Of a stretch of 64,000 bases of DNA, positions 1,581 through 61,891 are shown piece by piece. This stretch comes from Eledone cirrhosa (taxonomy: Eukaryota). The first letter of the stretch is position 1. Every line of letters begins with the position of its first letter. The translations under genes were made by a program, and so were the position numbers. The notes below the pieces were generated by a model that was not told the origin of the DNA, did no database searches, and saw nothing but the letters and a program-made list of their open reading frames with translations. Location: the NCBI GenBank assembly GCA_964016885.1, contig OZ024757.1, positions 25,792,001-25,856,000 on the forward strand, given 5' to 3'.

Positions 1581-2047
1581 ACATACTTACACACACATAC
1601 ACGCACATATTTACACAAATATATATACACACACACACACACACATACACATACAGTCTCAAATACACATACACTCTCAAACACACATACACTCTCAAAC
1701 ACATATACACTCACATACACACTTATATATATATATATATGGCGAATTGGTAGAGTCGTTAGAACGTCGGTTAGCATTTCTTTGCAGCCGGTATAGGTTT
1801 TGGGTCTCAGCGCTGAAATCCCACCGGGGTCAGCATTTCATCCTTTTGAGGTCAATAAAATAAAATACCAGTCAACTATTAGGGTCAATTCCTTTGTTGG
1901 TATTTACACCATTCTCTTGTAAACGTGAATGACGTAAGTGAAAAGACTTCAATTGGATTGGGAGTTGAAATCGCGTCACAACTCCACCCCTTTCATGTAC
2001 GACATTCGTCTCACGTATGTCTACGTTGTAATATTTGTATAGAGAAA

Positions 2048-2430
2048 GGGCGGTGGATTGGCGGTATCGGTAGAGGGTCGGACGCCATGCTTTCAAGCAT
2101 AGTTACGTCCCTTTACGATCTGAGTTCAAATCCCGCCGAGGTTGACTTTGCCTTTCATCCTTACGGGGTCGATAAAATAAAGTACCAGTAATGCACTGGG
2201 TAATTGCTGGCCTTGTGCCTAAAGTAGAAACAAATATTTGTATAGAGAATTGGCAGTATCGGTAGAGAGTCGGACACCAGGCTTTGAAGCATAGTTACGT
2301 CCCTTTATGATCTGAGTTCAAATCCCGCCGAGGTTAACTTTGCCTTTCATCCTTAGGGGGTCGATAAAATAAAGTACCAGTAATGTACTGGGTAAATGCT
2401 GGCCTTGTGCCTAAAATAGAAACAATTATT
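2048..2430 (+). mobile_element. Two tandem copies of the dominant tRNA-derived SINE
   Basis: A-box tggcggtatcggtaga, B-box gagttcaaatccc, body gcctttcatccttacggggtcgataaaataaagtaccag. More than 25 copies or fragments in the window. Confidence 0.85.
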
Positions 2431-2710
2431 TGTATAGAGAATGTTATAGCTTTGAGTATGTGTATGTATTTATGTATGTATATGTATGGATATGGTTGAT
2501 GAATACATCTATATATATATATATATTATATATATATATAAACACATACATACACAGAGACAACCATACATATATTGGGTCAAGTATGAAATTTGTAGAA
2601 ATTTGTAGAAAAAAAAACAAATTTCTACAAATTTTATACTTGACAACCCAATAGATATTTGGATATGAAATGTTACCATTGCTGTACTACTGTAAGTCAG
2701 AATAAAATAA

Positions 2711-2821
2711 ATCCAGTCGGATCAATTGGAGACTGTTGCTTCGGACAGGACCCGCTGGAAAGAGTGTTTGAGGACTCTGCCCCCATACGACCCTCTCAGG
2801 AATAAGTGCACGAATAAGAAG
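2711..2821 (+). mobile_element. RTE-like LINE 3' end fragment
   Basis: Homologous to the distal part of 4720-4971; an inverted copy lies at 2981-3089. Confidence 0.6.
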
Positions 2822-2980
2822 ACTTGTGTATATGAGTATCTTTCTACATATACACTGAAACCCGAAAGATTCCTATCAAGGACTGAACACAAAAGAATCA
2901 AATTCCCATTGTCACTTCCTCTGTCTCTCCCCCAATCTCTCACTATTATAAGCAAATGGGAGCCCACACGCTGGCGGCCT

Positions 2981-3089
2981 CTTCTCTTCTTCCACCTATT
3001 CCTGAGAGGGTCGTGGGTGACAGAGTTCTCAAACACTCCTTCCGATGGGTCCTGTCAGAAGATACTGTCTCCAATTGATTCGGCTGGAT
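2981..3089 (-). mobile_element. RTE-like LINE 3' end fragment (inverted copy)
   Basis: Reverse complement aligns to 2711-2821 starting from the same first bases, atccag. Confidence 0.6.
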
Positions 3090-3094
3090 CCGCA

Positions 3095-3181
3095 AGTTTC
3101 CCCGGAGGATGGTGAGGGAGGCGCGTTGGAAGAGTAGTCATTCCAGCTCGCGAGGTTCACACCTGCGGATAGCCAACTGTG
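3095..3181 (-). mobile_element. CRE-like non-LTR retrotransposon C-terminal remnant
   Basis: Minus strand reads ...RCEPRELE*LFQRASLTILRGN; matches 25998-26595. Confidence 0.7.
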
Positions 3182-4511
3182 TGCCGATGGTGGTGAGTAG
3201 GGAGGTGGTCCTAGCGCCAGTGACACTAGAAGTCTCCACTGCTACGGGCTCGACCGCAAACCTGTCGGAGAGCGACTGCCGATGGTGGTGAGTAGGGAGG
3301 TGGTCCTAGCGCCAGTGACACTAGAAGTCTCCACTGCTACGGGCTCGACCGCAAACCTGTCGGAGAGCGACTGCCGATGGTGGTGAGTAGGGAGGTGGTC
3401 CTAGCGCCAGTGACACTAGAAGTCTCCACTGCTACGGGCTCGACCGCAAACCTGTCGGAGAGCGACTGCCGATGGTGGTGAGTAGGGAGGTGGTCCTAGC
3501 GCCAGTGACACTAGAAGTCTCCACTGCTACGGGCTCGACCGCAAACCTGTCGGAGAGCGACTGCCGATGGTGGTGAGTAGGGAGGTGGTCCTAGCGCCAG
3601 TGACACTAGAAGTCTCCACTGCTACGGGCTCGACCGCAAACCTGTCGGAGAGCGACTGCCGATGGTGGTGAGTAGGGAGGTGGTCCTAGCGCCAGTGACA
3701 CTAGAAGTCTCCACTGCTACGGGCTCGACCGCAAACCTGTCGGAGAGCGACTGCCGATGGTGGTGAGTAGGGAGGTGGTCCTAGCGCCAGTGACACTAGA
3801 AGTCTCCACTGCTACGGGCTCGACCGCAAACCTGTCGGAGAGCGACTGCCGATGGTGGTGAGTAGGGAGGTGGTCCTAGCGCCAGTGACACTAGAAGTCT
3901 CCACTGCTACGGGCTCGACCGCAAACCTGTCGGAGAGCGACTGCCGATGGTGGTGAGTAGGGAGGTGGTCCTAGCGCCAGTGACACTAGAAGTCTCCACT
4001 GCTACGGGCTCGACCGCAAACCTGTCGGAGAGCGACTGCCGATGGTGGTGAGTAGGGAGGTGGTCCTAGCGCCAGTGACACTAGAAGTCTCCACTGCTAC
4101 GGGCTCGACCGCAAACCTGTCGGAGAGCGACTGCCGATGGTGGTGAGTAGGGAGGTGGTCCTAGCGCCAGTGACACTAGAAGTCTCCACTGCTACGGGCT
4201 CGACCGCAAACCTGTCGGAGAGCGACTGCCGATGATGGTGAGTCGGGAGGTGGTCCTAGCGCCAGTGACACTAGAAGTCTCCACTGCTACGGGCTCGACC
4301 GCAAACCTGTCGGAGAGCGACTGCCGATGATGGTGAGTAGGGAGGTGGTCCTAGCGCCAGTGACACTAGAAGTCTCCACTGCTACGGGCTCGACCGCAAA
4401 CCTGTCGGAGAGCGACTGCCGATGATGGTGAGTAGGGAGGTGGTCCTAGCGCCAGTGACACTAGAAGTCTCCACTGCTACGGGCTCGACCGCAAACCTGT
4501 CGGAGAGCGAC
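3182..4511. repeat. 95-bp tandem array, exactly 14 copies, derived from the CRE-like endonuclease tail
   Basis: tgccgat recurs at 3182, 3277, 3372, 3467 and onward. The minus strand of the unit encodes SLSDRFAVEPVAVETSSVTGARTTSLLTTIG. Confidence 0.95.
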
Positions 4512-4719
4512 CTATTTATCATAGATTGTAAGACTGAGGTTATCCGAGGGTCAAGGACACCAGAAGTCTCCACACTTATTCTAGCGTTTTACCTTCTGAA
4601 TTTAAATCCCACCGGCATCGGTTTTGATTTTCATCTTTTGGGGGTTAATCCTTTTTTACTTTGATCCAAGATGGAGGATTGGCAGAACCGTTGCAATATT
4701 GGGGAGAATTCCTTTGAAG

Positions 4720-4971
4720 TATTGGGCATGTGGTTAGAATGTCTCAGGAAAGAATCGCTGGACAGATTTTACGAGCAAAACCAACCGGCAAGAGATCCCT
4801 GAGTAAATCCGAACCAAGATGGTTGGATAACATCCATAAGCTTGGTTCGTCATGGTTGGGGATCAGCTGGGTGAGTTGGAGACGGTTGATTCTGACAGGA
4901 CGCGCTGGGAGGAGTGTTTTAGAACTCTTTCCACGCGACTTTCTCGGGAATAAGTGGACGAAGAAAAAGAC
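4720..4971 (+). mobile_element. RTE-clade LINE ORF C-terminus remnant
   Basis: GHVVRMSQERIAGQILRAKPTGKRS...RWLDNI matches the RTE GHVxRM...GxRxxGRPxxRWxD pattern. Confidence 0.75.
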
Positions 4972-5066
4972 ATATATATATATATATGTGTGTATATATA
5001 TATATATATATGAATTACAGAGTCGGGCTGGATCGATACAGATCGAACCTTGAGCTGATCAGTGGC

Positions 5067-5078
5067 GAAACGCGCGTC
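5067..5078 (+). ncRNA. 3' half of a minimal hammerhead (GAAA-cgcgcg-TC)
   Basis: Palindromic stem III ACGCGCGT is typical of PLE HHRs; no CUGANGA box found upstream. Confidence 0.35.
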
Positions 5079-5265
5079 ACCAACCAATAAACGTAATGAA
5101 GGAGTAACCACTCGTCCTTGTTTTATTCAAATCCCGTCGAGGTTAACTTTGCCTTTCATCCTTACGGGGTCGATAAAATAAAGTACCAGTAATGCACTGG
5201 GATAATTGTTGGCCTTGTGCCTAAAGTAGAAACAATTATATATATAATGTACAAAGAGGGTGTGG

Positions 5266-5365
5266 GAAGATACCAGGTGGACCATAACGCACTAGAGTAC
5301 TCAATACTTAGGGTAGTAGAGTGGGTAATATGAAGAGAGTCAGGACTCCGACGGCTGTTAAGTTA
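5266..5365 (-). mobile_element. PLE pLTR-like family D fragment
   Basis: Matches 15319-15475, 50372-50549 and 61705-61891 (acccactctactaccctaagtattgagtactct). Confidence 0.6.
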
Positions 5366-5666
5366 GACATGGCCTGGACCAATACTGGCCAAAACCTATC
5401 ATAACTGGTACTTTATTTTATCGTAGTCGTCCTCGGCTGGGTTCGAAATCAGAACGAAACGGGCCGTAAAGAACGCGTAACTAACATACTGCAAAGTTGT
5501 TTATGTCTGCATGTGTGCACGAGCATGTGCACACACCTGTATATATGTATGTTAGTGTGTGTGTGAAGAAATATCTATTACATATGGACGGCTATATAAA
5601 AATTACACGCACACTAACACACAGAAACACGTGTATGTGTGTGTGTGTATATATATATACACATAT

Positions 5667-5758
5667 ACAGGATGTGTCCCCCCCCCCCCAAATATGTATA
5701 CATACTTCTAATAAATATTGCTTGTACAGGTAATTAAAGTGTGTATAGGACACCCTGT
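5667..5758. mobile_element. Tc1/mariner-type MITE (CAGGGTGTCC termini), degenerate
   Basis: tacaggatgtgtcc...ggacaccctgt; relatives at ~13990-14058, 52595-52717 and 57835-57923. Confidence 0.55.
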
Positions 5759-6182
5759 GTATGTGTATATATATATATATCCAGGAACGTTAACAAACGG
5801 CTATACATATGGACGGTTATATAAATTATACATACATACATACACACGTACATAACTATGTGTATCGATATATATATATGTGTGTAATGCTGAATCTCCC
5901 TGAGAACTATATTAAGTTGTTAGAACAACTGGTCGGAGGTCCTACACACACACACACACACACACACACATCCTTAGTACATGGGTTGTAGAGATATAAA
6001 TATTTGTAAACAAGGCAGCCGTGTGTGTATATAGGTGTATATAGTATACACACTTTATACATCGTCATGTGTACAGACATATAAACAAACAGTTGTGTTC
6101 ACGTGAAGTCATCGTATGTTTATAAAGAAACGTGCATGCTGTATATTACCTGCACGCCTGAGTGTATAAACACATGCAGGTG

Positions 6183-6240
<58 letters not shown>

Positions 6241-7349
6241 CATACATATATATATATATACATACATACACATATATATATATACATACATATATATATA
6301 TATACATACATACATATATATATATACACACACACACACATATATATTTTACCTGTTCCAGCCTTCCGGCTGAGGCCATGCTGGGGTATATATATATATA
6401 TGTATGTATGTATGTATACAGCTGTATGTTTAAGTACGCGTTGCCATGACATGACATCCTGTTTATTTGTGTGTCCCTATAACCTTATGTTTTTTAATAG
6501 CACACATTGTATCTCACTCGAACACACACTTACATTGTACTACATACGAACACAAACACACATGTAAACATACATATTCCAGTACCATGCATTGTATCAC
6601 ACACACACACATATGTGTGTGTGTGTATATATATATATATACCAGTACCACGCATTGTATCACATACACACACTCAGTTCAGTAACACAGATTGTATCAT
6701 ATACACATATACTCCTTTTAATAGCTCATATTGTATTATACACAAACATAATAATATTGTATTACATACGGACACAAACATACACATACATATTTCAACG
6801 GTGCACATTATATTACATACACACACAGATATTTAACGTTTCAATCGCACTCATTGTCACATACAAACACACACACACACTCACACATCAACTAATAACA
6901 CACATTATATTACATACCAACACACGCACACACATATTTCAATAGCACATACAAACACACACACATCAACACCTACACATATACCAAATAGCACACTTTG
7001 TATTGCATACCAACACGCATACACATTCACATTCATACACACACACATATATTCCAATAGCAGAGACTGTATCTCATACGAACACACACACATATACATA
7101 TTCCAATAGCGAACACACACACACGTTTTCAATAGCGCACATTGCATTACGTAGGCACTTACATATTTCGGTACATATGTACTCCCGGCAGCACCGGCAA
7201 CACCACACACACATATGCACACACTTGCACATTTGCCTCACGTACGCACTGCCGCACTGGTTACACAAGAGTCAAAGGAGTCCTCTGTGTGGACGCTTGA
7301 CCTGCTAAAATAGCAACCAAATCTCTCTCGTTACACATTCACCGTCTCC

Positions 7350-7625
7350 AAAAACCGGAACTTGTCCTCCAAAATAGGGATACACCGGGAGTTGTCCTCT
7401 AAAATCGGGACACACCGGAACTTGTCCTCAAAATAGGGACAAACCGGAAGTTGTCCTCCAAAATAGGGACACACTGGAAGTTTTCCTCCAAAATTAGGGT
7501 CACACCGGAACTTGTCCTCAAAAGTAGGAACACACCGGAACTTATCCTCCAAAATAGGGACACACCGAAACTTGGCCTCCAAAAAGAGGGACACACCGGA
7601 AGTTGTCCTCCCAAAACACCACGGA
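7350..7625. repeat. ~30-bp minisatellite (cacaccggaacttgtcctccaaaataggga), ~9 copies
   Basis: Direct periodicity. Confidence 0.9.
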
Positions 7626-8293
7626 ATCTTGGAGCTAAACAATAATAACAACAGCAGCAACACTGTTATTACTGATGTCGCTTTCGTTGCTAGAAATAGC
7701 AGCCAAAAAAACACAGGCATCACAAGTGATCGTTGTTAAAACAGGAAGGAAACACTGGTTAGTGTCGTGTTAGATATAGAAAAAGATACCGGATTGGATG
7801 GTCAAAGCTGGAACGCCTTAGATCAGAGGTCTACTCGATCAAGATTGACCTTGGGCTAAATAACGATTATCATACACACTTCGCACGATGTACATATAAC
7901 ATCGCTTCACACATAATACAGAGAAAAATATACATATATGTATGTGTATATATATAATGTATAATGTGTGTGTACGGAGAGAGAGAGAGACGAGATAAAA
8001 GCGTGCTTTTGTATCTGTGAATGACAATGTCATATATATATATAGAGAGAGAGAGGGGGGGGACGGTGGCAGAAGAGAGAGAAGTATCAGTACAATACAG
8101 ACCATAACCAATAAACCACATGACAGTCATGTGTGAATTCATGTGTCTGTCTATAAATTTGTGTTTATTTATGTAATCACACATCTGTAATAGTCATGTG
8201 ACGACGACGACGATGATGATGATTCCTCCCTCCCTCCCTCTCTCTCTCTATATATATATACTCCCTCTCTCTCTCTATATATATATATACTCC

Positions 8294-8328
<35 letters not shown>

Positions 8329-8999
8329 CTCTCTTTCTCTCACACCCTCTCTTTTTCCGCTCCCTCTCTGTTTCCCCTTTCTTTCTACCCTTACTTTCTC
8401 TCACTCCCTATATCCTCTCTTTCTTTCACCTCTCTCTGTCCATCCTCTCTTTTTCAACCCTCTCTCTCTGTTCTTTCTCTACCACACCACCTCCCCCTTC
8501 TCTCTCTCTTCCTCTGTCTCTCTCTTTCTCTCTGCAACTCGTGTGTCCATATTGCATCTGTTTCAATACTGTGTCCCAAGCAATTCTGATGGCAACTTTT
8601 CCAGCAGATTTATCCCATGACCACATTTGGAGGCCTTTCGCTTTAGGTATATAAAATAGACAATAAAAATGAAGGGGAACGAAGGCTCACCCTTGAGGAT
8701 ATTTCGCTATGTAAATGAAAAAGGCACTCGTGTTTGCGTTGTAAATCTTCGCCTTTTGATTTTTTTTTCTTTGTAATCGAAAAACTGAAAGATTTATTTT
8801 AACGTATGCATTCTGTTTCACTGCACTCTGAGTTCAAATACTGCCGAGGTCAACTTTGCCTTTCATCCTTTCGAGGTCGATGATAAAAAAAAAAAAAGTA
8901 TCAATCTCGTACTGGGGTCAATTCTTCCTCTAATATCTCTTACTTCTTCTCTACCACATAATCCCCTTCTCTGGTGGAAAAAAAATCGGCTGTGTTCAG

Positions 9000-9150
9000 G
9001 CAGCGGATTAAATTGAAAAGGCTTAAGAAGGATAGCAAGAGAAATGCGCTGAAAGTACCATTCCAATCCGCAGAAGACATTCTTGTGGATAGCCAATTTC
9101 CAACTCGATAGTAGTGAGCTGGTTCGGGGATTTCAAGGTACGACTAATAA
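9000..9150 (-). mobile_element. Old CRE-like 3' remnant
   Basis: QLTTIELEIG and LEWYFQRISLAIL align to LLTTIGAE...LEWLFQRVSL of the other copies. Confidence 0.55.
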
Positions 9151-9589: not shown

Positions 9590-10080
9590 ACACTAGACCG
9601 GTACTTTTTTGTTTATCAACCTCGGTAGAATGAAAAACAAAGTTGACCTCGGCGGGATTTTAACTCAGAGCGCAAAGAACCAGAGCAAATACTACAAGGC
9701 ATTCTATCCGACGATCTAACGACTGCCAGTTCGCTGCTTTTGCATATATAATAGTCTACAGTAAATTTATTATACGTATTCATGTGATGTTTCGCTTTAA
9801 GTATATAAAATGGCAGCCAATAGAATGAAAGGTGTCTGGTTTTCTCTTTTTGAATCTATAAACTGAAAGATTTTTTTCTTTTAATGATTTGTTTGTGATT
9901 GTTATCTCTTCGTTATACTGACCTAGGCGGCGAATTGACACAGTCTTTAGAACGTCGGATAGGATGCTTTGCGGCGTTCGTTTCGACTCTCTGAGTTCAA
10001 ATCGTTCCGGGTTCAACTTTGCCTTTCATCCATTCGGAGTCGATTAAAAAAGTGCCAGTCTACTACTGGGGGTCGATTCT
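9590..10080. mobile_element. Two diverged dominant-family SINE copies (9590-9740 minus, 9925-10080 plus)
   Basis: B-box and gcctttcatcc body present. Confidence 0.7.
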
Positions 10081-10099
10081 TCCTCTATATCTCTTTCTC

Positions 10100-10219
<120 letters not shown>

Positions 10220-10221
10220 CT

Positions 10222-10515
10222 ATATCTAGGGCGGGTAAAATTCCCGAGATCCATGGACGAGTTCTCTCCAGCGGTCTCTGTCGCTCATTATCGCTGCCAT
10301 GTCCTGCGTCTCCAACAGACGTCTGTCCTTAGGGCATCAACATACGTTAACCTTGGTCTTCCTCTTCCAGTGTGTCCATGTAGGGGCTCCCACAGGAGCA
10401 CTGAGTGCAATGTCAACTCTGGATGTCGGTGAGCATGTCCAGCTAACCTCAGTCTCCTCTGTGTCACTTTTGAGCTGACTTTTGGGAGGCTCCCATACAG
10501 CTCTGAGTTTTTCAT
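10222..10515 (-). mobile_element. RTE-clade LINE 3' remnant
   Basis: NSELYGSLPKVSSKVTQRRLRLAGHAHRH...LLWEPLHG...GRPRLTYVD; second copy at 34103-34452. Confidence 0.8.
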
Positions 10516-10846
10516 CCTATATATATATATATATATCATAGATTGAGTTAGAAACTCAAAATAGTCTTTTACAATTAAATAGCTCAAAGAAGGGAATCTT
10601 TCCGAGCCGTGTAATATAATTGGATATATAAGAGGGGTGAACACAGATATAAGTATACATGTGATAGAGGTTTGTTATTTTTATTGATTTATTACTTTAA
10701 ATCGAGTCAGGCAAACCATATTGTATTAAATTAGCATTTTTTCAACCTAGCTAACTTGGTCATTTGTAATTGGAACACATGTATACTTATATATGTGTCC
10801 ATCTCTCTCTCTATCCTTCCCTGGAAGAAATCTACTATATTCAGAC

Positions 10847-10916
10847 CTGAAGAGGAGATGGGCTGCTTCGCCAGGTTTAATGATGTCCTAGAAACGCTGT
10901 ATGTCAATACAGCGTC
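10847..10916 (+). ncRNA. Hammerhead-like motif with long stem III
   Basis: CTGAAGA-gga...tccta-GAAA-cgctgtat(gtca)atacagcg-TC; perfect 9-bp stem III and GUC triplet, but no stem I is evident. Confidence 0.5.
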
Positions 10917-11679
10917 CCTACGACTCCCTTGGAAGTTAGGGACTATGCATGTATACTGACTTGCTCCTTCCCAATTGACTGTCTCTAGTCATTTGCCGCC
11001 CACCAATAAATTAGCTCAACAAGGTGTAGCTGTTGAACATGAGTCCCAGAAAAAAAAAAAAAAAAAAAGGAATCTAGTCTAAGGTTGCGATAGGACTTGC
11101 ACCTTTCATTCAATTTCATTTAATTATCTTTTCCTTTCGTTTTACTTCTCTGGTATTTTATATACCACCATCATCATCATCATCATCATCACCATTACAC
11201 ACCACCACTACCACCACCACTGCTTCACACCACCAATACCACCACCATCGTCATCACCACTACACAGCACCACTATCACTATCACTATCACAACTACACA
11301 CCACCACCACTACCACCACCACTACACATCATCACCAACACCACTACTGTCCACACAACAGATAGTTAAACAGAAGACAAGCCCACTTCAGTCAGTTATT
11401 CTTTCCTTCTCTGAAAACCTTATATAATCAATTAGACCTAAAAACACTTGACCTGACCTGACCTGACCTTTTCACTCCCACTTTTATTTCTGGAATCAAG
11501 AGTTATTTTTAAGGTTATGAGAATAAACCCTTTCTGTTTCTTATAAAATATATTCCTATCTTTTTTTCAAGCCCCAAATCAGCCGTTATTGAGTAGACAA
11601 ACCTCTGGTAAAAGGAAATCAAGTTATGACCATCCTGTCTTAGTTTCTCTTTCAGATTTATAGTGATTACACTTTAGAC

Positions 11680-11988
11680 CAGAGGTTCTCATAGTGGACA
11701 CTACTCCCCCCCCCCCCGGAGGGGGGGGGGGGCGTTGGGGTGGTAGAGATGATATAGTATATTAAATATCAAATGATACATATATATAAATATAGTAAAA
11801 TAAAAAATATATATTTATTTATACATAGTATATATTATATTTATTATATATAAATTAACGATTTTATTTATTATATATTATTTCCAATTTGCATGTAGAC
11901 AGGTCTCTCTGGAAATAGGGTTGGGGACGCTGATGGTATTACGGGGTCGTGAAGGTGGGAGGTGGACGAAAAGGTTTGAGAACCTCTG
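11680..11988. mobile_element. hAT (Charlie-like) MITE with 8-bp TSD
   Basis: TIR cagaggttctca/tgagaacctctg; TSD ctttagac at 11672-11679 and 11989-11996. Confidence 0.9.
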
Positions 11989-12158
11989 CTTTAGACCAAT
12001 GTATTATTGTGTTATATATATATGGCACCTACATACCCCCCCCCCCCGCAGGCCAGACATTTCACCCACCTCCCCCTATCACCGATTTTTTTTAACTTCT
12101 CTTCCTAACCTTCTCACTCTACTCTTACGTTCGTTTAACTGCCCACCCCCATCTGCAC

Positions 12159-12194
12159 TTTCCTGAAGAAAGGCTTTTGTCCGAAACGTTGAAA
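12159..12194 (+). ncRNA. Minimal type I hammerhead (PLE family B)
   Basis: tttc-CTGAAGA-aaggcttttgtcc-GAAA-cg-TT-gaaa; palindromic AACGTT stem III. Confidence 0.7.
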
Positions 12195-12351
12195 CCTCCT
12201 CCAAGCGTGAACCTAATATAACTGTGTAAATTTGCCTCATGTGTTTTCATTTATTGTGTGTGTGTGTGTGTGAAAAGTAAATAGGAATAACAAAGCAAAC
12301 GGCACAGTACAATGAAGAAATATATTAGTTTAACGATTGAAATAACTGGAA

Positions 12352-12390
12352 GTCTTAACGTTTCAGACACTACTCCTTCATCAGAATGAG
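12352..12390 (-). ncRNA. Minimal type I hammerhead
   Basis: Minus strand: att-CTGATGA-aggagtagtgtct-GAAA-cg-TT-aaga; stems I and II are weak. Confidence 0.55.
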
Positions 12391-12427
12391 AAATAAATGA
12401 TGAAACAGAAAGATATATGTGTGCGTG

Positions 12428-12476
<49 letters not shown>

Positions 12477-12621
12477 ATATATATAAGTAGAAGGGGTATT
12501 TAATTTGTTGGAAGTCCGACAAATATAAATGTTTATAACTAATTTAGAGCACTCAACAGTTTACTGGAGTACATATTCAATGATATTAAATAAATGGAAA
12601 CTATATTTATAAAACCATATT

Positions 12622-12684
12622 TATTTTATTATATATATTTCAAGGGTACCAAGACACATTGGTACGCTTTCATCAGATAAAATA
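12622..12684 (-). ncRNA. Intact type I hammerhead (PLE family A)
   Basis: tattttat-CTGATGA-aagcgtaccaa(tgtgtc)ttggtaccctt-GAAA-tatata-TA-ataaaata: 8-bp stem I, long stem II, palindromic stem III. Confidence 0.85.
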
Positions 12685-12749
12685 CAAAGTTTGTTTTATA
12701 AATAGAGACGTACCCATGAAAATCATACCTTATCGGTTGGAAATTCACT

Positions 12750-12817
<68 letters not shown>

Positions 12818-13517
12818 AATAATATTGCCAGAATTAATATATGACGGTAGTATGAGGTTTTAGGATGATTTAGCTTCTATTTTTATCACGTAGAAGTTCA
12901 CTAGCTGACTCATTTAATATGTTCTTTTGGGGAAGTGTGTTATTTTCACAACTCTTTCGTTATCATATATATAATGCCAGATACACTATCTTTGGTTTTC
13001 AAACCAGTTTGAAACAGATCAAGAATTTAAAGAGATTTAATAATATAATTCACTTTATTTCTTTATTAAGCTGGTGTTTGGAACATAACTTAACTCAGTT
13101 TCTCACATAAAATTATAATGGAATGCTTTAGATAAATATAAACACTTTAATCTTTTCAATACCATATGAAAGACACTGCTTTATGGTTTTCAAATAATTT
13201 TGAAAATAATAAAGAATTTGGGTGGTTAATGTTTCAAATATAACTTATCAAAGAGTCTTACATAAAATTATGATGGAACGCATTTATATAAATATAAGCA
13301 CTTTAAAATAAATGGCTTTGGATGATAAAACCAAGGTCGGTTTCTGGCGATTTGATATCAGGAGTGTTAAAGACAGTAACGTGAGTTGTGAGGAAGATTA
13401 AACTGCTATTTTTAACCGGTCGAGCAACCGTGTAGGAGCTGAATAGTCTGTGCATTGAAATTGCTCCGTCAAGTTACAGGACATACAAACACACGCACAT
13501 GTACATACGTGTATATG

Positions 13518-13551
<34 letters not shown>

Positions 13552-14084
13552 ATGATGGCTGCCCCCTCGTTATCCAGTATGGCCATTGCACGTTATACCA
13601 TTATTGATAATTATTAATTCTATCGTGCAATGCCTGTGCGTGAAGATATTTTTTAAAGTGAGGAAAGACTGTGCACTGAGCCAATCCCACTCTCTGAGCG
13701 ACAGTAGCTATAACACGAAAAGAAGAAAAGATCAACATCATCGGTAACTACTGAGCCGCAGGTTTTATATCGGAGTTATCCCAGATTCCTGAGTTGCCTT
13801 CTCTTAGAAGAATGCCCTGACAAAGGCTAGGGGTCCTTCACTCCCAGTGGTTTAACCGCGCGATCGGGTGTCCAGCCCGGCCTTTTCTATGTCCCCGTGC
13901 ATATACATACACCCATGTATATACACATATACATACATATGTACATGTGTATATACATATTTACACACTATATATATATATATATATGTGTACAGGATGA
14001 CATCAAAATGTATATATACTTTGATTACCTGTACATACATTTTTGGGGACACTCTGTGTATGTATATATATACACACACATGCA

Positions 14085-14222
14085 GTGATGAGGCCAGGGA
14101 GACCACTAATCATGGGAGTGCTCAATGCATGGGGAGATGCAGAGTGAGTATAGAGATATATAAAATCTCGACCTCTCAGCGTCAAACCGAAACCGCTTGG
14201 CGCCGCGGTCGGGGTTTTACAT
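14085..14222 (+). ncRNA. Degenerate hammerhead with long stem II region
   Basis: gtgatga at 14085; GAAA-ccgc(ttggcgcc)gcgg-TC at 14189-14210. A minus-strand copy of the 3' half lies at ~16587-16622. Confidence 0.4.
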
Positions 14223-14340
14223 ATCTCTCTCTCTCTCATGGGTGACCTTGAGCCAATCCTCTGCGAAACGTGCGCAACTGGTCGATACACAATAAATATC
14301 TCATAAATGTAAACGGAACTTCCTCGTTTTTTCTAATATA

Positions 14341-14400
<60 letters not shown>

Positions 14401-14405
<5 letters not shown>

Positions 14406-14533
14406 GGCTTCTACAGGCTTCCTGAAGCAGTTCTAGTCCTGTAGAAGCCATTTCTATATTAAATATTTATACTCTGCTATGTATTGAGTACCTTACTTGC
14501 TGTGGTTACCCCCGATTGAACCCGGGATAAACA
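14401..14533 (+). mobile_element. PLE pLTR-like family C fragment with 5' inverted segment
   Basis: gaaatggcttctacagg/cctgtagaagccatttc inverted repeat; homologous to 17379-17505 and 60713-60853. Confidence 0.6.
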
Positions 14534-14735
14534 TATATATATATATAACTCGAGTCCGGAAACCGTATAGGCACCCGTTTTACGTGTGCTGTGTTGAGGC
14601 AAATAACTATGTGTATACTCTGGTAATGTATCTTACATTGCCCATTGAGTGCGCTGAGATACAACCGGTACTGGCATTGATAAATATGCTGGGTCCGTCA
14701 ACCCTTACTATATATATATATATATATGGAGGAGG

Positions 14736-14804
14736 TTATTTAAATGTCCTTTACTTCCCTCTGAAGAAGAGATATTATCTCGAAAATTAAGGACATTTAA
14801 ATAA
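14736..14804 (+). ncRNA. Minimal type I hammerhead
   Basis: cct-CTGAAGA-agagat(att)atctc-GAAA-at-TA-agg, enclosed by the 16-bp IR ttatttaaatgtcctt/aaggacatttaaataa. Confidence 0.7.
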
Positions 14805-14903
14805 ATTCAAGGTGAAAGACGAATCCACATCAATATCTTTCACTATTGCATTCTTTTTTCTATGTCCATATCTGCATTGTCTTGGCCTTATTACACATAT
14901 TCT

Positions 14904-14942
<39 letters not shown>

Positions 14943-15072
14943 ACGAGCTTTCACACACTTTCCGCCTACCAAATGTCACTCACACAGTATTGGTCAACCC
15001 TAGGTGTCACGGGGTGTAAATGAAACCAGAACCACGTGGTTGCGAAACGAACTCATTAACCACACAGCCATA
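14943..15072 (-). mobile_element. tRNA-derived SINE of another family, diverged
   Basis: Minus strand tggctgtgtggttaa...ccacgtggttctggtttca...atttggtaggcggaaag. Confidence 0.55.
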
Positions 15073-15279
15073 CTTATTAGCTGGAGTATTATAACATGAG
15101 TAACGGAGTAGACCAAGTACATCCACCTGATGGGATATCCACTCAGTTTCCGGATATCATATTTCATTGTGAAGCTCTGGTGTTACGTTAGAGGACACCG
15201 AGCTTCTGTGAGAGAGAGAGGGGGGGGAGAAGGATAGAGAGGGAGGGAGAAGAATAGAGAGGCGGGGAAGGATAGAGAG

Positions 15280-15318
<39 letters not shown>

Positions 15319-15319
<1 letters not shown>

Positions 15320-15475
15320 AAAAGAGTCAGGACCCCGACGGCTGAGCTCCGGCCGTTGCGACAGCTAGATCTAGTTCGGATCTAGCTGTCAAAACGACTA
15401 TTTTCCTATTACCCACTCTACTACCCTAAGTATCGAGTACTCTGGTGCGTTATGGTCTACCTGGTATCTTAGCAC
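15319..15475 (+). mobile_element. PLE pLTR-like family D fragment
   Basis: Hairpin gacagctagatc/gatctagctgtc plus the shared tail; follows (TA)n. Confidence 0.6.
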
Positions 15476-15585
15476 ACTTCCACCACTTGTTTTCATTTTA
15501 ATTTTCTTTACTTCATTTTAATTTTTTCTCCCTTTTTAATGTCTTTCCATCACACCCTCTCGGAACTCTTTTCCTTCCCACCTTT

Positions 15586-15618
15586 CTCCTGATGAAGGGC
15601 TTATGCCCGAAATGTCGG
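15586..15618 (+). ncRNA. Minimal type I hammerhead (PLE family B)
   Basis: CTGATGA-agggc(ttat)gccc-GAAA-tg-TC; downstream caagcgtaaacttaata is shared with the 12159 copy. Confidence 0.7.
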
Positions 15619-15702
15619 CCCCACCCCCACCCCACTCTCAAGCGTAAACTTAATACCAACACTGTTCGTACTGCACTTTTTGTTATTGTTTTTGTATTTT
15701 AC

Positions 15703-16101
15703 TAAATAAAATAACAGGAGGCTGGACTGGCGTAAATCCTTGAAAGGTTTATTATACTATGATCATTTCAATGACCGGGTTCCATATGAATCCGGTGATA
15801 TCATCAGGTATTCGAAATATAACAAAGGAATATGTATAAAAAAAACCATGGGTCCGAAAAATCAGAGACAGAGAAGCCAGTCGCCTTTGAGGGCGACTGG
15901 CCGAGGTGAAAGCAGCTAGTTGGTCAGTCGTCCTCTCTGTCTCTGATTTTTCGAACCCATGGTTTTTTACATATTCCTTTGTTATATTTCGAATATCTGA
16001 TAATATCACCGGATTCATGCGGAATCTGGTCATTGAAATGATCATAGTATAATAAACCTTTCAAGGATTTACACCAGTCCAGCCTCCTGTTATTTTATTT
16101 A
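15703..16101. mobile_element. Foldback with ~170-bp arms: inverted PLE pLTRs with an HHR in each arm
   Basis: Arms 15703-15874 and 15934-16101. Minus HHR 15754-15811: atac-CTGATGA-...accggattc(atatg)gaacccggt...-GAAA-tgatca-TA-gtat. Plus HHR 15993-16050 has CTGATAA. Confidence 0.8.
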
Positions 16102-16245
16102 TAATTAACTCCGTATTCGCAACACCAACTACACAAACGGAAGACGGGTGAACTGCACTACGTTGAGTACTTTCCATAATATTACACCAAGATTGACCAT
16201 ACGGAATGACCAATTCTATCCAGTGGTGATCCAACAAACCTAAAG

Positions 16246-16285
<40 letters not shown>

Positions 16286-16494
16286 ATATATACACCCAAG
16301 TGCAAGCTTAGTAAAATCGAAGCTTTGGCTGTGGCCAAGCAAAGTCGGCCTACAATAAGGAATGAGTAGCAAAGCACTCAATAAGGGTAGGTCCTCAGAG
16401 TAATAACATTATGTTTAGATAGCTTGACAAATTGAAAATTGCGGCAGGCAAAACCCAACCATACAATACCAAAACAACGAAAAAACTAATCAGG

Positions 16495-16589
<95 letters not shown>

Positions 16590-16636
16590 TAAAACCCTCA
16601 CCGCGGCGTCAAGCGGTTTCGACTGTATTCAGCAAG

Positions 16637-16672
<36 letters not shown>

Positions 16673-16884
16673 GAGAGGTATAGAGATTGTTTTAGCAAGA
16701 AGCTAACGGCATTCTATAACATATATGCGACTATAACGTCAAGATGGGAAAAGTAGTTAACGAAAGATTTAGGAAAAATAACTCAAACTCATCTCAAAAG
16801 AGAATCAGGATACAAATTCATCCACAGAATTTAGTAAAATCCAGGGAAAAATCTATAGACCTTTAACTCATGATAAAATAAAGT

Positions 16885-16919
<35 letters not shown>

Positions 16920-17327
16920 GGGCGGACATTGTTTGTTAAGATCAGGGCCGGGTTTAATGAAGAGCAAAGGGGGCAATTTCTCCGGAACTGCTTCAGATTA
17001 AACGATACAGTGTTGTATCATACAGGTTTGAAACAACCTTATATATGCAGGGCCGGATTTAATGGGGTACAAACGGGGCAATCATATTTTATTATTTGTT
17101 TGACCCGAATAGCTTGCTCGCTTCTATGGCTTTGCGGTTAATGGTTTAACCATCGTCTCAGTGTGTTTGGTCTTTTAACGTATGTTTATTGTTCTAGTTC
17201 ACTCGTTTCTATTGAGATCTTGCCACACATTTCGGAAGTTGTTTTACGCTAATTTCCAATAGCCGAAATGCGATTCTCGCTAATTTATATTTGTATATAT
17301 ATATATATATGTATATATATGTATATA

Positions 17328-17381
<54 letters not shown>

Positions 17382-17518
17382 TTCTACTGGATGAAACAGT
17401 TCTAGTCCTGTAGAAGCCATTTTCTATATTAAATATTTATACTCTGCTATGTATTGAATACCTTATTTACTGTGGTTACCCCCCGATTGAACCGGGGATA
17501 AACATATATATATATATA

Positions 17519-17877
17519 TACAATATTAAATAAATGGAAACTATATTTATAAAACCATATCTATTTCATTATATATATTTCAGAGATATCATATTAACAA
17601 TATGCTATGCCTTCCTCAGACAAAATACAATATAAACAGTTTTATAGATAAATAGATTCGACATACCGTAACAACATCGACTTGTATTTGAAAAATCAAC
17701 CTTTTCAAATACAAGTCGATGTTGTTACGGTATGTCGAATCTATTTATCTATAAAACTGTTTATATTGTATTTTGTCTGAGGAAGGCATAGCATATTGTT
17801 AATATGATATCTCTGAAATATATATAATGAAATAGATATGGTTTTATAAATATAATTACCATTTATTTAATATTGTA
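17519..17877. mobile_element. Near-perfect palindrome (176-bp arms, 7-nt loop): inverted PLE pLTRs with HHRs at 17562-17627 (-) and 17769-17834 (+)
   Basis: 2 mismatches seen between arms. HHR tattttgt-CTGAGGA-...catatt(gtt)aatatg...-GAAA-tatata-TA-atgaaata; related to family A. Confidence 0.85.
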
Positions 17878-17961
17878 AATATACTCCAAATATTTGTCGA
17901 GTGCTTTTATATCAGTTATAAATATTTACTAGTTGTAACCCAACAATTTAAATATAACTTT

Positions 17962-18013
<52 letters not shown>

Positions 18014-18286
18014 TCATACATATACAGTATAATAAAAATACTATCACTCACACACACATATATATATATATGTGTTTTTAATACACCATGTATGTGTGTG
18101 TGTATATATATATATGTGTGTATATATATATATATATATGATGTGTGTGTATACATTATAGTCTAATAACTACTACAAGTTAATGACAACATAGGATGAC
18201 GACGTCAGTCTTACCACCAGATGGCAATTAAGTGCAATTATTTCCCTCTTTTAACTACCAATAGGAGGTCTTTCTCTCTCTCACCT

Positions 18287-18320
18287 TATATATATATATA
18301 TACATATATATATGTATATG

Positions 18321-18369
<49 letters not shown>

Positions 18370-18464
18370 CACACATATATATATATATATATTACACACA
18401 TATATATATATATATATATATGTTACACACATATATATATTACACACACATATATATATACATA

Positions 18465-18528
<64 letters not shown>

Positions 18529-18907
18529 CACACATATATATATTTATATATATATTACACATATATATATATTACACACATATATATATTTATATATATA
18601 TTACACACATATATATATTACACACACATATATATATACATATATATATTACATATATATATATGATATATATATTACATATATATATATGATATATATA
18701 TACATATATATATATATGATATATATATACATATATACACATATATATACACATATATATATATACATATATATACACATATATATATACATATATTACA
18801 TATATATATATATATATATGATATATATATATACATATATACACACATATATATATATACACACATTATATATATATATATATATATATACATACATATA
18901 TATATAT
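18287..18907. repeat. Long interrupted (TA)n microsatellite
   Basis: Direct. Confidence 0.95.
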
Positions 18908-19242
18908 GAACGCCTGTATCCATTCTACCGCGTTACCCTCGCCACATGAAACTGAATCTTGTGTCCTCTCTCTCGAGTTATAGCAATTATTTTACCTATC
19001 CTTTCAATCACATTCATATAGCATATCTCAGCTGTTTATTTGAGTGCATGGGTGTGTGTGTATTTATGTATGTGTGTGTGTGGTGTGTGTATGTGTATGT
19101 ATGCGTGCATGTATGTATGTGAGTGTGTAATCTATATAATTATCATTTCAGTCGTATACTCTACAATTTGTGTTTGAGTAATCTTTTCGTCTGTCTCTGT
19201 GTGTGTGTGTTGTGTGTGTGTCTCTCTGCCCCTAATGTTTTC

Positions 19243-19430
19243 TGGGAACTCTGGGACCAAGGACGCGAACGTCATCCAATAACATACAACGTCGTTCATA
19301 AAACCATAGCATATTTCAACGGATCATGGCACTGCCGTCTGTGTCTAACTGAGCAGCTTTTCAAATTGCAGCAATCAACTATATCACATAACAGAAGGTC
19401 AGAGAAATTCTCTAGTTGCCATCATCGGAC
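19243..19430 (+). mobile_element. Remnant of a PLE GIY-YIG endonuclease C-terminal region (possibly Naiad-type)
   Basis: WELWD...YFNGSWHCRLCLTEQLF...NRRSEKFSSCHHR fits the CxLCxxEK...LNxRxE...CRH pattern of invertebrate PLEs. A half HHR, GAAA-gctatagc-TA, lies at 19592-19605. Confidence 0.65.
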
Positions 19431-19865
19431 TCGGGGGTCTCCTGGACAACCTCCAGACGCTACAAAGTTCAAATGTCTCTCAATACAAATCCATAACTAT
19501 CATACCTAACGCAGAACTTGCATACATCTAAAAACCCAAACGGAGAGCACCATGAAAAAAAGTACTCCAAAATAGGGAGATTTTACATAATGAAAGCTAT
19601 AGCTATTTTCAGGAGAGAAGACATCTCTCACTCACCGCAAAGGCTATTGCAAATTTCCCCGTCGGACAGGGAGAGTTGACAGGTCTGCTAACGAGTGTTA
19701 CGGAATAGTCACTTCAAGATGGATCACAGGCCTTGTTTGGGGTTGACTCCCTTAAACCACATCAATCCACTTTTGACCTGTCACGTGACCCGTCTTGACC
19801 AATGTGAAGCGGTTAGTGGCCTACATTGTGCGCTCAGGACATCGCTTGAATTTAGTATAAATTTT

Positions 19866-19996
19866 CGGTTGGTTGGTTCGATAACCGGATGGTTGTTTAC
19901 TATATAGTGTCACAGCTCTTTCGTCACACATTCTGTGACCTCCTCAGTGACTAGGTTTTTATTTTGTGTCTCTCCTTTATTCTGTCCTACACCATC
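19866..19996 (+). mobile_element. Diverged fragment of the Ginger-like TIR
   Basis: ggttggttggttc...ttcgtcacacattctgtgacctcctcagtgact aligns to 50695-50830. Confidence 0.65.
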
Positions 19997-20007
19997 AACG
20001 AAATATA

Positions 20008-28701: not shown

Positions 28702-29004
28702 CTTATCATGACACAAATCAAAACACATCCGGGTGTAAATGCCATTCCATGCCGTGGAAAAAGTGCACAACACTAGTTTGTATTATTACACATGTATAAC
28801 GTTCCAAAACCACACATAAGTCATATATATATATATATATATATATATATCATCATTATCATTGTTTAACGTCCATCTTCCACGCTAGCATGGTTTGGAC
28901 TGGTTTGTCCCACTTGAGGCAAGATTGGTCAGGAGACCGTGTCTCGTTCGTACAGAACTGTTTCTGGCAGGTTTTCTATGGCTGGATGCCCTCCCTAAGA
29001 TCAA

Positions 29005-30188
29005 CCACTTTACAGTGTGGACTGGGAGTCTTTTTACCGTGTCTCCTACACGACCACTTTACAGTGTGGACTGGGAGTCTTTTTACCGTGTCTCCTACAC
29101 GACCACTTTGCAGTGTGGACTGGGAGCCTTTTTACCGTGTCTCCTACACGACCACTTTACAGTGTGGACTGGGAGCCTTTTTACCGTGTCTCCTACACGA
29201 CCACTTTACAGTGTGGACTGGGAGCCTTTTTACCGTGTCTCCTACACGACCACTTTACAGTGTGGACTGGGAGTCTTTTTACCGTGTCTCCTACACGACC
29301 ACTTTGCAGTGTGGACTGGGAGCCTTTTTACCGTGTCTCCTACACGACCACTTTACAGTGTGGACTGAGAGCCTTTTTGTCGTGTCTCCTACACGACCAC
29401 TTTACAGTGTGGACTGGGAGTCTTTTTACCGTGTCTCCTACACGACCACTTTACAGTGTGGACTGGGAGCCTTTTTACCGTGTCTCCTACACGACCACTT
29501 TACAGTGTGGACTGGGAGTCTTTTTACCGTGTCTCCTACACGACCACTTTACAGTGTGGACTGGGAGCCTTTTTGTCGTGTCTCCTACACGACCACTTTA
29601 CAGTGTGGACTGAGAGCCTTTTTGTCGTGTCTCCTACACGACCACTTTACAGTGTGGACTGGGAGCCTTTTTACCGTGTCTCCTACACGACCACTTTACA
29701 GTGTGGACTGGGAGTCTTTTTACCGTGTCTCCTACACGACCACTTTACAGTGTGGACTGGGAGTCTTTTTACCGTGTCTCCTACACGACCACTTTACAGT
29801 GTGGACTGGGAGTCTTTTTACCGTGTCTCCTACACGACCACTTTACAGTGTGGACTGGGAGTCTTTTTACCGTGTCTCCTACACGACCACTTTACAGTGT
29901 GGACTGGGAGCCTTTTTACCGTGTCTCCTACACGACCACTTTACAGTGTGGACTGGGAGTCTTTTTACCGTGTCTCCTACACGACCACTTTACAGTGTGG
30001 ACTGGGAGTCTTTTTACCGTGTCTCCTACACGACCACTTTACAGTGTGGACTGGGAGCCTTTTTACCGTGTCTCCTACACGACCACTTTACAGTGTGGAC
30101 TGGGAGCCTTTTTGTCGTGTCTCCTACACGACCATTTTATTGTGTGGACTGGGAGTCTTTTTACCGTGTCTCCTACACGACCACTTTA
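29005..30188. repeat. 49-bp tandem array, 24 copies
   Basis: ccactttacagtgtggactgggagtctttttaccgtgtctcctacacga recurs from 29005 to 30181. It continues a dispersed repeat (ggatgccctccct...) also seen at 47995 and 53928. Confidence 0.95.
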
Positions 30189-30384: not shown

Positions 30385-31022
30385 ATGCTGATGGTGATGA
30401 GTAGGGATGTGGTTCTAGGGCCAAGGACACCAGAAGTCTCCACTGCTACGGGGTACCTATGGAGGTGGTCCTAGGGCCAATGACACCAGAAGTCTCCACT
30501 GCTACGGGGTACCTATGGAGGTGGTCCTAGGGCCAATGACACCAGAAGTCTCCACTGCTACGGGGTACCTATGGAGGTGGTCCTAGGGCCAAGGACACCA
30601 GAGTCTCCACTGCTACGGGGTACCTATGGAGGTGGTCCTAGCGCCAATGACACCAGAGTCTCCACTGCTACGGGGTACCTATGGAGGTGGTCCTAGGGCC
30701 AAGGACACCAGAGTCTCCACTGCTACGGGGTACCTATGGAGGTGGTCCTAGGGCCAAGGACACCAGAAGTCTCCACTGCTTACGGGGTACCTATGGAGAT
30801 GGTCCTAGGGCCAAGGACAGCAGAAGTCTCCACTGCTTACGGGCTCGACTACAATCCTGTCAGAGAGCTACCGATATTTGGAGTGTTTACCCTCCTTGGC
30901 CCGAAGTGCAGCAGAGCCCGGGTTAGTCACACACTGCGCCAGGTTGCCGCTGGAGAAAGTGTTACAGCATGTGGTCGTTGCATGTGACATCCCAGATGAA
31001 GGGTTTACCACAGCGGACCAGG
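30385..31022 (-). mobile_element. CRE-like remnant containing a 55-57-bp tandem array (8 copies, ~30405-30843)
   Basis: ccaa recurs at 30421, 30477, 30533, 30589, 30644, 30699, 30754 and 30811. The unit covers VAVETSGVLGPRTTS; an RTE tail lies at ~30255-30380. Confidence 0.85.
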
Positions 31023-33735: not shown

Positions 33736-34102
33736 GTCTACATTACTCCCCTCTTTCTCCTTCTATGAAAGAAATCGGTTCTGTTCAGATCTAGAAAGGG
33801 GATGGGCTCAGGCAAGGTTAAAGTGCCCCTACAATTCCATCAGGAATTGTGGATCCTTACATATCATACTCTCTACACACACATACATACATACATTCAT
33901 TCTATACACACAGGCATGCGAATGGAATTACATATACACAATCAAATGCTCACACACATACTACTGTGTGAACCTTTGGGGTTGTTTCATAGTTAAAGCT
34001 GTGTTCTTACCTGGTTGGACCTATTTACAGCCAGGTAGACTGAGGGCATTTTACAGTTAAGTGGCTTGGACATGATCATATTCCATTGTTTGTGATACAA
34101 TC

Positions 34103-34452
34103 TATCTATCTAGGGCAAGTAAAATTCCCGAGATCCATGGACGAGTTCTCTCCAGCAGTCTCTGTCCCCTCATCATCACCGCCATGTCCTGGGTCTCCCA
34201 GAGACCAGTGTCTGTCCTTAGGGCATCAACATGTATCAACCTCGGTCTCCCTCTTCTAGTGTGTCCGTACAACGACTCCCACAGGAGCACTGAGTGCAGT
34301 GTCAACTCTGAATGTCGGTGAGCATGTCCAGCTAACCTCAGTTTTCTCTGTGTTACTTCCAAGCTGACTTTTGGGAGGCTCCCGTACAGCTCTGAGTTCT
34401 TCTTCCTCGGTGTATACTGATTAATGTTCAGAGCCATCCTCAGCATTCTCGT
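34103..34452 (-). mobile_element. RTE-clade LINE 3' remnant
   Basis: MLRMALNI...NSELYGSLPKVS...LRLAGHAHRH...GRPRL. Confidence 0.8.
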
Positions 34453-34481
34453 GATACAATTGTTTATTATTATTATTATTT

Positions 34482-61704: not shown

Positions 61705-61891
61705 GAAAAGTTTCAGGACCCCGACAGCTGAGCTCTGGCCGTTTCGTCAGCTAGACCCGAACTGTTCGGATCTAGCTGTCAAAACGGTCAGAGCTCAGCC
61801 GTCGGGGTCCTGAATCTTTTCCTATTACCCACTCTACTACCTTAAGTATCGAGTACTCTGGTGGGTCATGGTCCACCTGGTATCTTACACC
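61705..61891 (+). mobile_element. PLE pLTR-like family D with palindrome 61705-61821
   Basis: gaaaag..tcaggaccccgac...gtcggggtcctga..cttttc, then the shared tail. Confidence 0.65.

Follow-up and report, generated by a model that had tools for sequence, protein, structure and literature searches.

Minimal hammerhead ribozymes in a dense cluster of truncated repeat ends, several traced to Penelope-like elements, in Eledone cirrhosa

Introduction

What brought many hammerhead ribozyme motifs together within 9 kb of the Eledone cirrhosa genome, and would they cut RNA made there? The motifs lie in a 64,000-nt window (assembly GCA_964016885.1, contig OZ024757.1, positions 25,792,001 to 25,856,000) on the contig termed C18 below, in a genome of 3.0 Gb; positions are counted from the first letter of the window. 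A sequence-only reading had described about 13 cores between 10847 and 19605 as a hot spot of several unrelated families, a nesting site for Penelope-like elements (PLEs) or retrozyme-like units, from which a read-through transcript could be cut into defined pieces. The hammerheads are real, and the local pile-up is real but unexceptional. The region very probably consists of about eight independent 5'-truncated 3' ends of repeats, five of them traced to PLEs, with the hammerheads being functionless passengers at this locus.

Hammerhead cores and controls

Motifs were called with a descriptor in which the core must be accompanied by helices I and II and by a helix III complementary to itself, and were graded as tier A (strict), tier B (weak) or tier C (core and helix II only). 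All nine full CUGANGA...GAAA...UH cores listed by the sequence-only reading were found, five on the plus strand (10847, 12163, 14761, 15589 and 17777) and four on the minus strand (12384, 12676, 15807 and 17619), with no strand bias. By this descriptor six belong to tier A (12163, 12676, 14761, 15807, 17619 and 17777) and 12384 to tier B; 10847 and 15589, in which a sound helix I is absent, belong to tier C. The CUGANGA, GAAA and UH core and the helices I and II of minimal type I hammerheads are present in the region. Helix III is a strict palindrome in seven of the nine cores, as had been remarked for many of them, and the coordinates of the cut sites predicted earlier (17826 on the plus strand and 12630 on the minus strand) were reproduced.

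Strict motifs were far above the shuffled controls that had been proposed as a check: the mean number of tier A motifs in 300 dinucleotide shuffles of 10001-20000 was 0.007, with a maximum of one. Tier C motifs arise by chance at 17 per Mb. Helix III was self-complementary in 51 of 60 motifs from 1 Mb of random sequence (16 expected; 15 distinct sequences only), helix III having been picked via helix I alone. This test is fairer than one of compensatory change, in which 91% of cells paired across 12 hand-picked diverged motifs and both sides had changed in 16 of 22 pairs, a level reached by none of 500 shuffles; the latter result leans favourable because the descriptor that chose the 12 motifs already demands pairing. 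The hammerhead motifs are under structural selection at the family level.

Rfam returned no match for the whole window at gathering thresholds, and no hammerhead was present among 135 matches to the region at E<=10. The Infernal check that had been suggested fails since Rfam scores no core, although the motifs are real. A variant-core scan of the window (i.e. CCGANGA, TTGANAA and CTGGNGA) added nothing. At another locus (L077), tandem copies fit a descriptor for the U3-A8 variant core (TTGANAA); these may be a satellite or a chance match in A-rich sequence.

Number of insertions

The region contains about eight insertions, not thirteen cores. A 182-nt inverted repeat, its arms 98% complementary, accounts for cores 17619 and 17777, one in each arm, and a 139-nt inverted repeat likewise for 15807 and 15997, of which 15997 is a mutated twin (G8 to A). 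Each pair is an element with its inverted twin and therefore counts as one element. Among the mutated or half cores proposed earlier, 15997 was borne out by this relationship, and 14085, ~16620 and 19592 were not, having homologues without the core. CUGANGA was absent from all 12 homologues listed for 14085, the core of which is peculiar to the window copy; ~16620 is a 3' piece of the same hairpin-ended repeat family; and neither the upstream CUGANGA nor the palindrome of the window copy at 19592 occurred in any of its 12 listed homologues. The earlier count of about 13 cores in 9 kb comes down to eight insertions once the twins are merged and these three are dropped. That reading had also missed two stubs (14400 and 17379) of one further family with a hammerhead-like core.

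A look-alike near 15360 was rejected as part of a palindromic repeat, as was 61750, and apparent long helices I at 14761 and 14400 were read as short inverted stubs at the 5' junction. The sequences 15319-15480 and 61705-61887 belong to an abundant palindromic repeat resembling miniature inverted-repeat transposable elements; CTGACGA at 61750 is peculiar to that copy among those aligned.

Parent elements

Judged by sequence matches, five families lie downstream of PLE protein sequence elsewhere in the genome, four of them (17777, 15807, 12676 and 12163) Neptune-type and one (14761) Penelope/Poseidon-type. The proposal of minimal type I hammerheads of the PLE pseudo-long-terminal-repeat (pseudo-LTR) kind in several families was upheld by these links. 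In relatives of 15807, 12676 and 12163, the Neptune-type endonuclease sequence lies 0.9-1.3 kb upstream and comprises the C-terminus only (i.e. ~900 nt upstream for 12163 at L307, ~1 kb upstream for 12676 at L022, with 94% identity, and 1.2 kb upstream, with a Cys linker, for 15807/15997 at L237/L295). A first look gave 885 candidate relatives of 17777. The longer copies of this family extend into an endonuclease C-terminus; the match was 100% at 150 of 150 places scored, several with open frames of 737-748 amino acids (aa). One locus (L154) has the complete PLE arrangement: a 745-aa frame (open reading frame, ORF, 4377-6614) with a Cys-rich linker lies between hammerheads at +4165 and +7922, and a truncated copy is present in inverted orientation. 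Atlas look-alikes of the 745-aa protein (0.96-0.98) include clusters with GIY-YIG or RVT_1.

Parent ORFs with a reverse transcriptase (RT) and, at the C-terminus, a GIY-YIG domain were found for 17777 through this frame and its look-alikes and for 14761 by Pfam, with matches to RVT_1 (7e-12) and GIY-YIG (5e-5) at a second locus (L293) between direct repeats of the 14761 stub that are 3,145 nt apart. Direct hammerhead-bearing pseudo-LTRs flank the ORF at both loci. The clade assignment of the parents leans partly on motifs that we presume to be characteristic. The Neptune and Penelope/Poseidon labels rest on motifs (with the Cys-rich linker as criterion, as given in the accessible part of PMC3846280) and not on an RT tree.

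In the 12384, 15589, 14761, 15807 and 17777 families, the 3' ends of the copies are fixed and mostly fall at microsatellites, and the 5' ends are ragged. In the 12384 family, most copies are short and the helices are fuller than in the window copy. A fixed 3' end with variable 5' truncation at a microsatellite was not seen for the 10847 family, the core of which reads CTGGAGA in 10 of 18 copies and CTGAAGA in four. A search of 1 Mb of random sequence matched the 14400 family 11 times, and other copies of this family carry CTGATGA...GAAA at tier C. Copies on both strands were observed at 11 of 19 loci of the 17777 family, 9 of 24 of the 15807 family and 8 of 24 of the 14761 family; two inverted 5'-truncated twins lie within the region, and every one of the nine inverted pairs that 1 Mb of random sequence yielded was back-to-back. 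Identities of the region's stubs to the best relatives examined were about 81, 85, 86, 87, 90, 96, 99 and 99%. Several stubs abut (15589 and the 15807 twin; 17379 and 17513; 12163 and 12384 at one tract).

There are several families, as had been stated, but they are not all unrelated, because helices I and III are common to 12676 and 17619/17777. The idea of a nesting site held for PLEs and not for retrozymes: the region contained no tandem array of 150-450-nt units each with a hammerhead.

Density relative to the genome

Background was estimated from 10-kb stretches (80 random genome-wide, 20 on C18 and 20 neighbours), with twins and arrays merged. For the genome-wide set, 80 of 100 drawn positions were used; these were drawn from lower bounds of contigs C1-C26, so that distal parts, C27 onward and small scaffolds lie outside the sample. 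The 10001-20000 bin holds five strict and eight total insertions. In the 100 random stretches the mean was 0.57 strict and 1.05 total and the highest count four and six, none of them reaching the region; the contrast is inflated by a descriptor written after the motifs had been seen and by bounds picked in the sequence-only reading. The local excess is about eight- to ninefold, and core density is above the genome background, as that reading had supposed.

What had been termed a hot spot lies in the upper tail of a genome-wide load. Insertion counts were over-dispersed genome-wide (variance 2.0, mean 1.05), and a negative-binomial fit gave P values of 0.003-0.005 per bin and 0.02-0.03 when the best bin per window is taken. 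From this bin probability and the genome-wide motif load, roughly a thousand patches this dense would be expected in the genome by extrapolation. Motif counts correlated with (TA)n tract counts (Spearman 0.53), and a microsatellite lay within 300 nt downstream of 60 of 66 strict motifs as compared to 47% of random positions in the same random stretches. Extrapolated to the genome, the 56 strict motifs in 800 kb, falling into at least 17 sequence clusters, give about 210,000 (bootstrap 131,000-296,000); a PLE protein match was present in 50 of the 100 random stretches. The available part of PMC7229834 gives 126,247 hammerheads for axolotl, using another descriptor.

Folding in context and pairing between copies

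In equilibrium predictions, forcing the ribozyme fold in context cost 73-107 kcal/mol for 15807, 17619 and 17777, about 19 kcal/mol for 10847 and 12384, 6-8 kcal/mol for 12163, 14761 and 15589, and 0.4 kcal/mol for 12676. On either strand the twin cores follow their own antisense arm; 15807, 17619 and 17777 are predicted to be trapped because this arm precedes each. Core 12676 is the best candidate for activity among the cores of the region.

Full cross-pairing in both helix I and helix III was possible for just one of the 16 pairs on the same strand, 12676/17619. These two lie 4,940 nt apart, have a common 8-nt palindromic helix III and cross-pair over 8 bp of helix I both ways; the partner, 17619, is one of the masked cores. 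The suggestion that a read-through transcript would be cut into defined pieces is disfavoured by the folding of 15807, 17619 and 17777 and by the single dimer-compatible pair. No RNA run was listed as containing the stretch. Contigs from three sequencing runs of unspecified kind, from one sample, over 14560-16230 showed the stubs to be highly repeated; they provide no molecule ends and have no bearing on expression. A Pfam scan of 150 of 160 non-repeat frames of at least 45 aa from 264 kb gave no match in the window, and no host exon was recognised there.

Features of the region and its surroundings

The features are collected in Table 1.

Table 1. Repeat ends, hammerhead cores and rejected sites in the region.
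Feature	Positions	Strand	Evidence
Old repeat, hammerhead-like core 10847, helix I out of register	10802..10955	+	best relative 86%
Old PLE 3' stub, core 12163, predicted cut after 12190, end at (TG)n	12086..12247	+	tier A; best relative 81%
PLE-like 3' stub, core 12384, helices I and II weakened	12273..12415	-	tier B
Neptune-type PLE 3' stub, intact core 12676, predicted cut 12630	12477..12752	-	tier A; helix I 8 bp
Non-hammerhead hairpin-ended repeat (14085)	14081..14237	+	CUGANGA in 0/12 homologues listed
3' stub of family with hammerhead-like core, core lost here, short inverted stub	14400..14533	+	94% match to 17392-17504
Young Penelope/Poseidon-type PLE 3' stub, core 14761, predicted cut after 14789	14748..14906	+	99% to relatives; between (TA)n tracts
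Old PLE-like 3' stub, core 15589, helix I 2 bp, helix III AUGU	15470..15702	+	tier C
Inverted twin of 15885-16245 element, intact core 15807, predicted cut 15758	15703..15874	-	tier A; adjoins end of 15589 stub
Neptune-type PLE 3' stub, core 15997 mutated (G8 to A), end at (TA)n	15885..16245	+	95-96% to best relatives
Non-hammerhead, 3' piece of 14085 repeat family (~16620)	16572..16621	-	88-89% match
Second 14400-family 3' stub, half core cut off by TA run	17379..17504	+	sequence match
Inverted twin of 17700-17960 element, core 17619, predicted cut 17570	17513..17694	-	182-nt arm, 98% complementary
Young Neptune-type PLE 3' stub, core 17777, predicted cut after 17826	17700..17960	+	98-99% to best relatives; between (TA)n tracts
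C-terminal fragment of a PLE GIY-YIG endonuclease, decayed, hammerhead not found alongside	19270..19434	+	E=9e-7 vs profile from PLE endonucleases of this genome
Non-hammerhead ~190-nt repeat, both ends fixed (19592)	19505..19698	+	no upstream CUGANGA and no palindrome in 12 homologues listed

Further hammerhead-bearing stubs were observed in the window at 19842-19996 (-), 40636 (+), 47726 (+), 50776/50998, 57714 (-) and 60770/60776. In the copy at 19947 a G occupies the cut site, and a Penelope/Poseidon-type endonuclease lies ~160 nt upstream of this copy's family. In the family of 14748-14906, the core reads CCGAAGA (i.e. U4C) in 28 of 33 copies examined, including both L293 pseudo-LTRs; the CTGAAGA of the window copy (14761) possibly arose through CpG decay. 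The U4C variant lowers activity in vitro, according to the available text of PMC3088659, and this young family appears from its sequences to have spread while carrying it.

True retrozyme-like arrays are present upstream of the window on C18. One of 311-nt units with 21 hammerhead motifs spans L122:4830-10000 and L123:1-1370 (about 25.707-25.713 Mb), and another of 310-nt units with 11 motifs occupies L125:5620-8870. Units were nearly identical within arrays (16 of 17 identical, and 5 of 5) and 97.7% identical between them; both arrays have (TA)n flanks and back-to-back strand flips. The best 150 of 342 matches fall into 17 loci, 10 of which have both strands, all back-to-back like the PLE inverted twins. 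This architecture suggests that PLE machinery may integrate multimeric retrozyme cDNA in one step. In the accessible part of bioRxiv 10.64898/2026.07.22.740005, a PLE origin of retrozymes is argued from phylogeny and not from this architecture.

Homogeneous minisatellites (96-99% matches) occupy 3182-4511, 29004-30188, 30405-30843, 43865-46817 and 49230-49782 of the window, with periods of 95, 49, 55, 65 and 80; some apparently derive from retroelement-like coding fragments near 22.8-26.6 kb. Two related fragments, at 10288-10500 (-) and 34102-34500 (-), resemble the 3'-terminal part of a reverse transcriptase from an RTE-type LINE. The frame scan of 264 kb also gave a PHD-finger match (L136:5172-5636, minus strand, E 2e-5) ~55 kb downstream of the window and three other weak Pfam matches.

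Discussion

The reading of the region as a pile-up of passenger stubs is based on the observed cores, the links to families, fixed 3' ends at microsatellites, inverted twins and identities of 81-99%; it is supported by the mixed ages of the insertions and the decay of several cores or helices. In the proposed model, the GIY-YIG endonuclease of an element would nick a (TA)n or (CA)n tract, and target-primed reverse transcription would begin at the 3' end of the RNA and stop early. The product would be a 150-450-nt stub with a pseudo-LTR hammerhead, often accompanied by an inverted twin. Families would pile up over time because each insertion leaves a microsatellite on its flanks as a fresh target. 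The hammerheads would be shaped by selection in active parents, probably for the processing of multimeric element RNA as dimers; at this locus they would decay or become masked by an antisense twin.

Several observations weigh against this explanation. A search of the copies examined, which are mostly short, gave no parent ORF for 12384, 10847 or 14400/17379; the copies of 12384 had no endonuclease match upstream, those searched for 10847 had no credible PLE protein match upstream, and 15589 had a single weak endonuclease match 2.2 kb upstream in L297. The 745-aa Neptune-type protein had no match in Pfam or in a PDB sequence search. Inverted copies were absent from the 12384, 15589 and 10847 families (0/24, 0/24 and 0/11), and three old copies still retain the full CUGANGA. 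TA richness does not fully explain the excess: the maxima in 68 TA-rich stretches were four strict and six total insertions, giving the region P values of about 0.005 and 0.0015 per fixed bin, and TA-rich bins in the rest of the window hold 0-3 insertions. A true insertion hot spot, at which a local property beyond TA content (e.g. chromatin open in the germline, site fragility or weak purifying selection) draws or keeps PLEs, is possible but unlikely. The persistence of the excess after conditioning on TA richness favours it, as does the abutment of several stubs; the genome-wide over-dispersion, under which the negative-binomial fit leads one to expect about a thousand such bins, does not, and the bounds of the region and the descriptor were chosen after the data had been seen.

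It is extremely unlikely that AT-rich sequence produced the cores by chance resemblance to a short consensus. The lack of any Rfam score, the three half cores that proved not to be hammerheads and the chance rate of tier C would all fit such an origin; the near-absence of strict motifs from shuffles, the changes on both sides of pairs in diverged motifs and the excess of self-complementary helices III do not, and a chance origin is refuted for tier A motifs. A functional processing array is very improbable. Its likeliest piece would be a 4,940-nt minus-strand fragment (17570-12630) released by a double hammerhead of two Neptune-type copies, and the shared helix III and helix I cross-pairing of 12676 and 17619, the almost cost-free folding of 12676 and a density above all 100 random stretches argue for it. 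Against it stand the single compatible pair among 16, the predicted masking of 17619, 17777 and 15807 at equilibrium, and a wide age spread with several cores or helices decayed; moreover, the available part of PMC4209133 reports no cleavage by single minimal hammerheads in vitro and low cleavage by dimers.

As a pile-up of passenger stubs, the patch itself is of little weight, being a dense sample of a known retrotransposon feature. More useful is the hammerhead load of about one per 14 kb, undetected by Rfam in this window. Recently amplified PLE families with open ORFs were also exposed. Better leads are found outside the region, in the motif load of the genome, in the U4C family and in the retrozyme arrays. 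What PLE hammerheads do could be examined in natural test cases: cross-compatible families, the young family with a mostly U4C core, and retrozyme arrays whose inverted architecture is of the PLE style. Helices I and III are cross-compatible in the commonest Neptune-type families of the genome. It is conceivable, though improbable, that among the ~2x10^5 intact genomic hammerheads any two same-strand copies within one host transcript (12676 and 17619, for instance), or a copy and PLE RNA in trans, form a double hammerhead that cuts host RNA at defined sites; if so, PLE stubs would constitute a genome-wide RNA-cutting system with inverted twins as a built-in off switch.

A literature search that took in octopus found no paper linking hammerheads to this kind of genome. 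The region represents known biology, i.e. PLE pseudo-LTR minimal hammerheads, in a new genome. Metazoan non-LTR retrozymes, as described in the accessible parts of PMC7229834 and bioRxiv 10.64898/2026.07.22.740005, likewise have type I hammerheads in short non-coding units and a proposed PLE link; they differ in forming tandem arrays of 150-450-nt units, of which the region has none, the true arrays being 45-85 kb upstream of the window. The endonuclease-bearing PLEs of the Neptune and Penelope/Poseidon types (Craig et al. 2021, PMC8557442; PMC3846280; available parts of both) share with the elements found here an RT followed by a C-terminal GIY-YIG domain, a linker rich in Cys (Neptune-type parents), extensive 5' truncation, partial tandem copies, a head-to-head inverted 5'-truncated copy and a bias to microsatellites, whereas the window contains nothing but non-coding 3' stubs and a single decayed fragment of an endonuclease. 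There is also a close likeness to the minimal hammerheads of PLE pseudo-LTRs (Cervera and de la Pena 2014, PMC4209133, accessible text), in which the type I core, short palindromic helix III and frequent bulged base before helix II recur, as do many families per genome, a majority of motifs that occur singly and come from truncated PLEs, and pairs on opposite strands separated by 100-700 bp. The present genome differs in its load, with an estimated 130,000-300,000 strict motifs in 3.0 Gb as compared to 2,000-9,000 per genome under a different descriptor, and in Neptune-type motifs whose helix I spans 6-8 bp, whose helix II is long and whose palindrome measures 8 nt.

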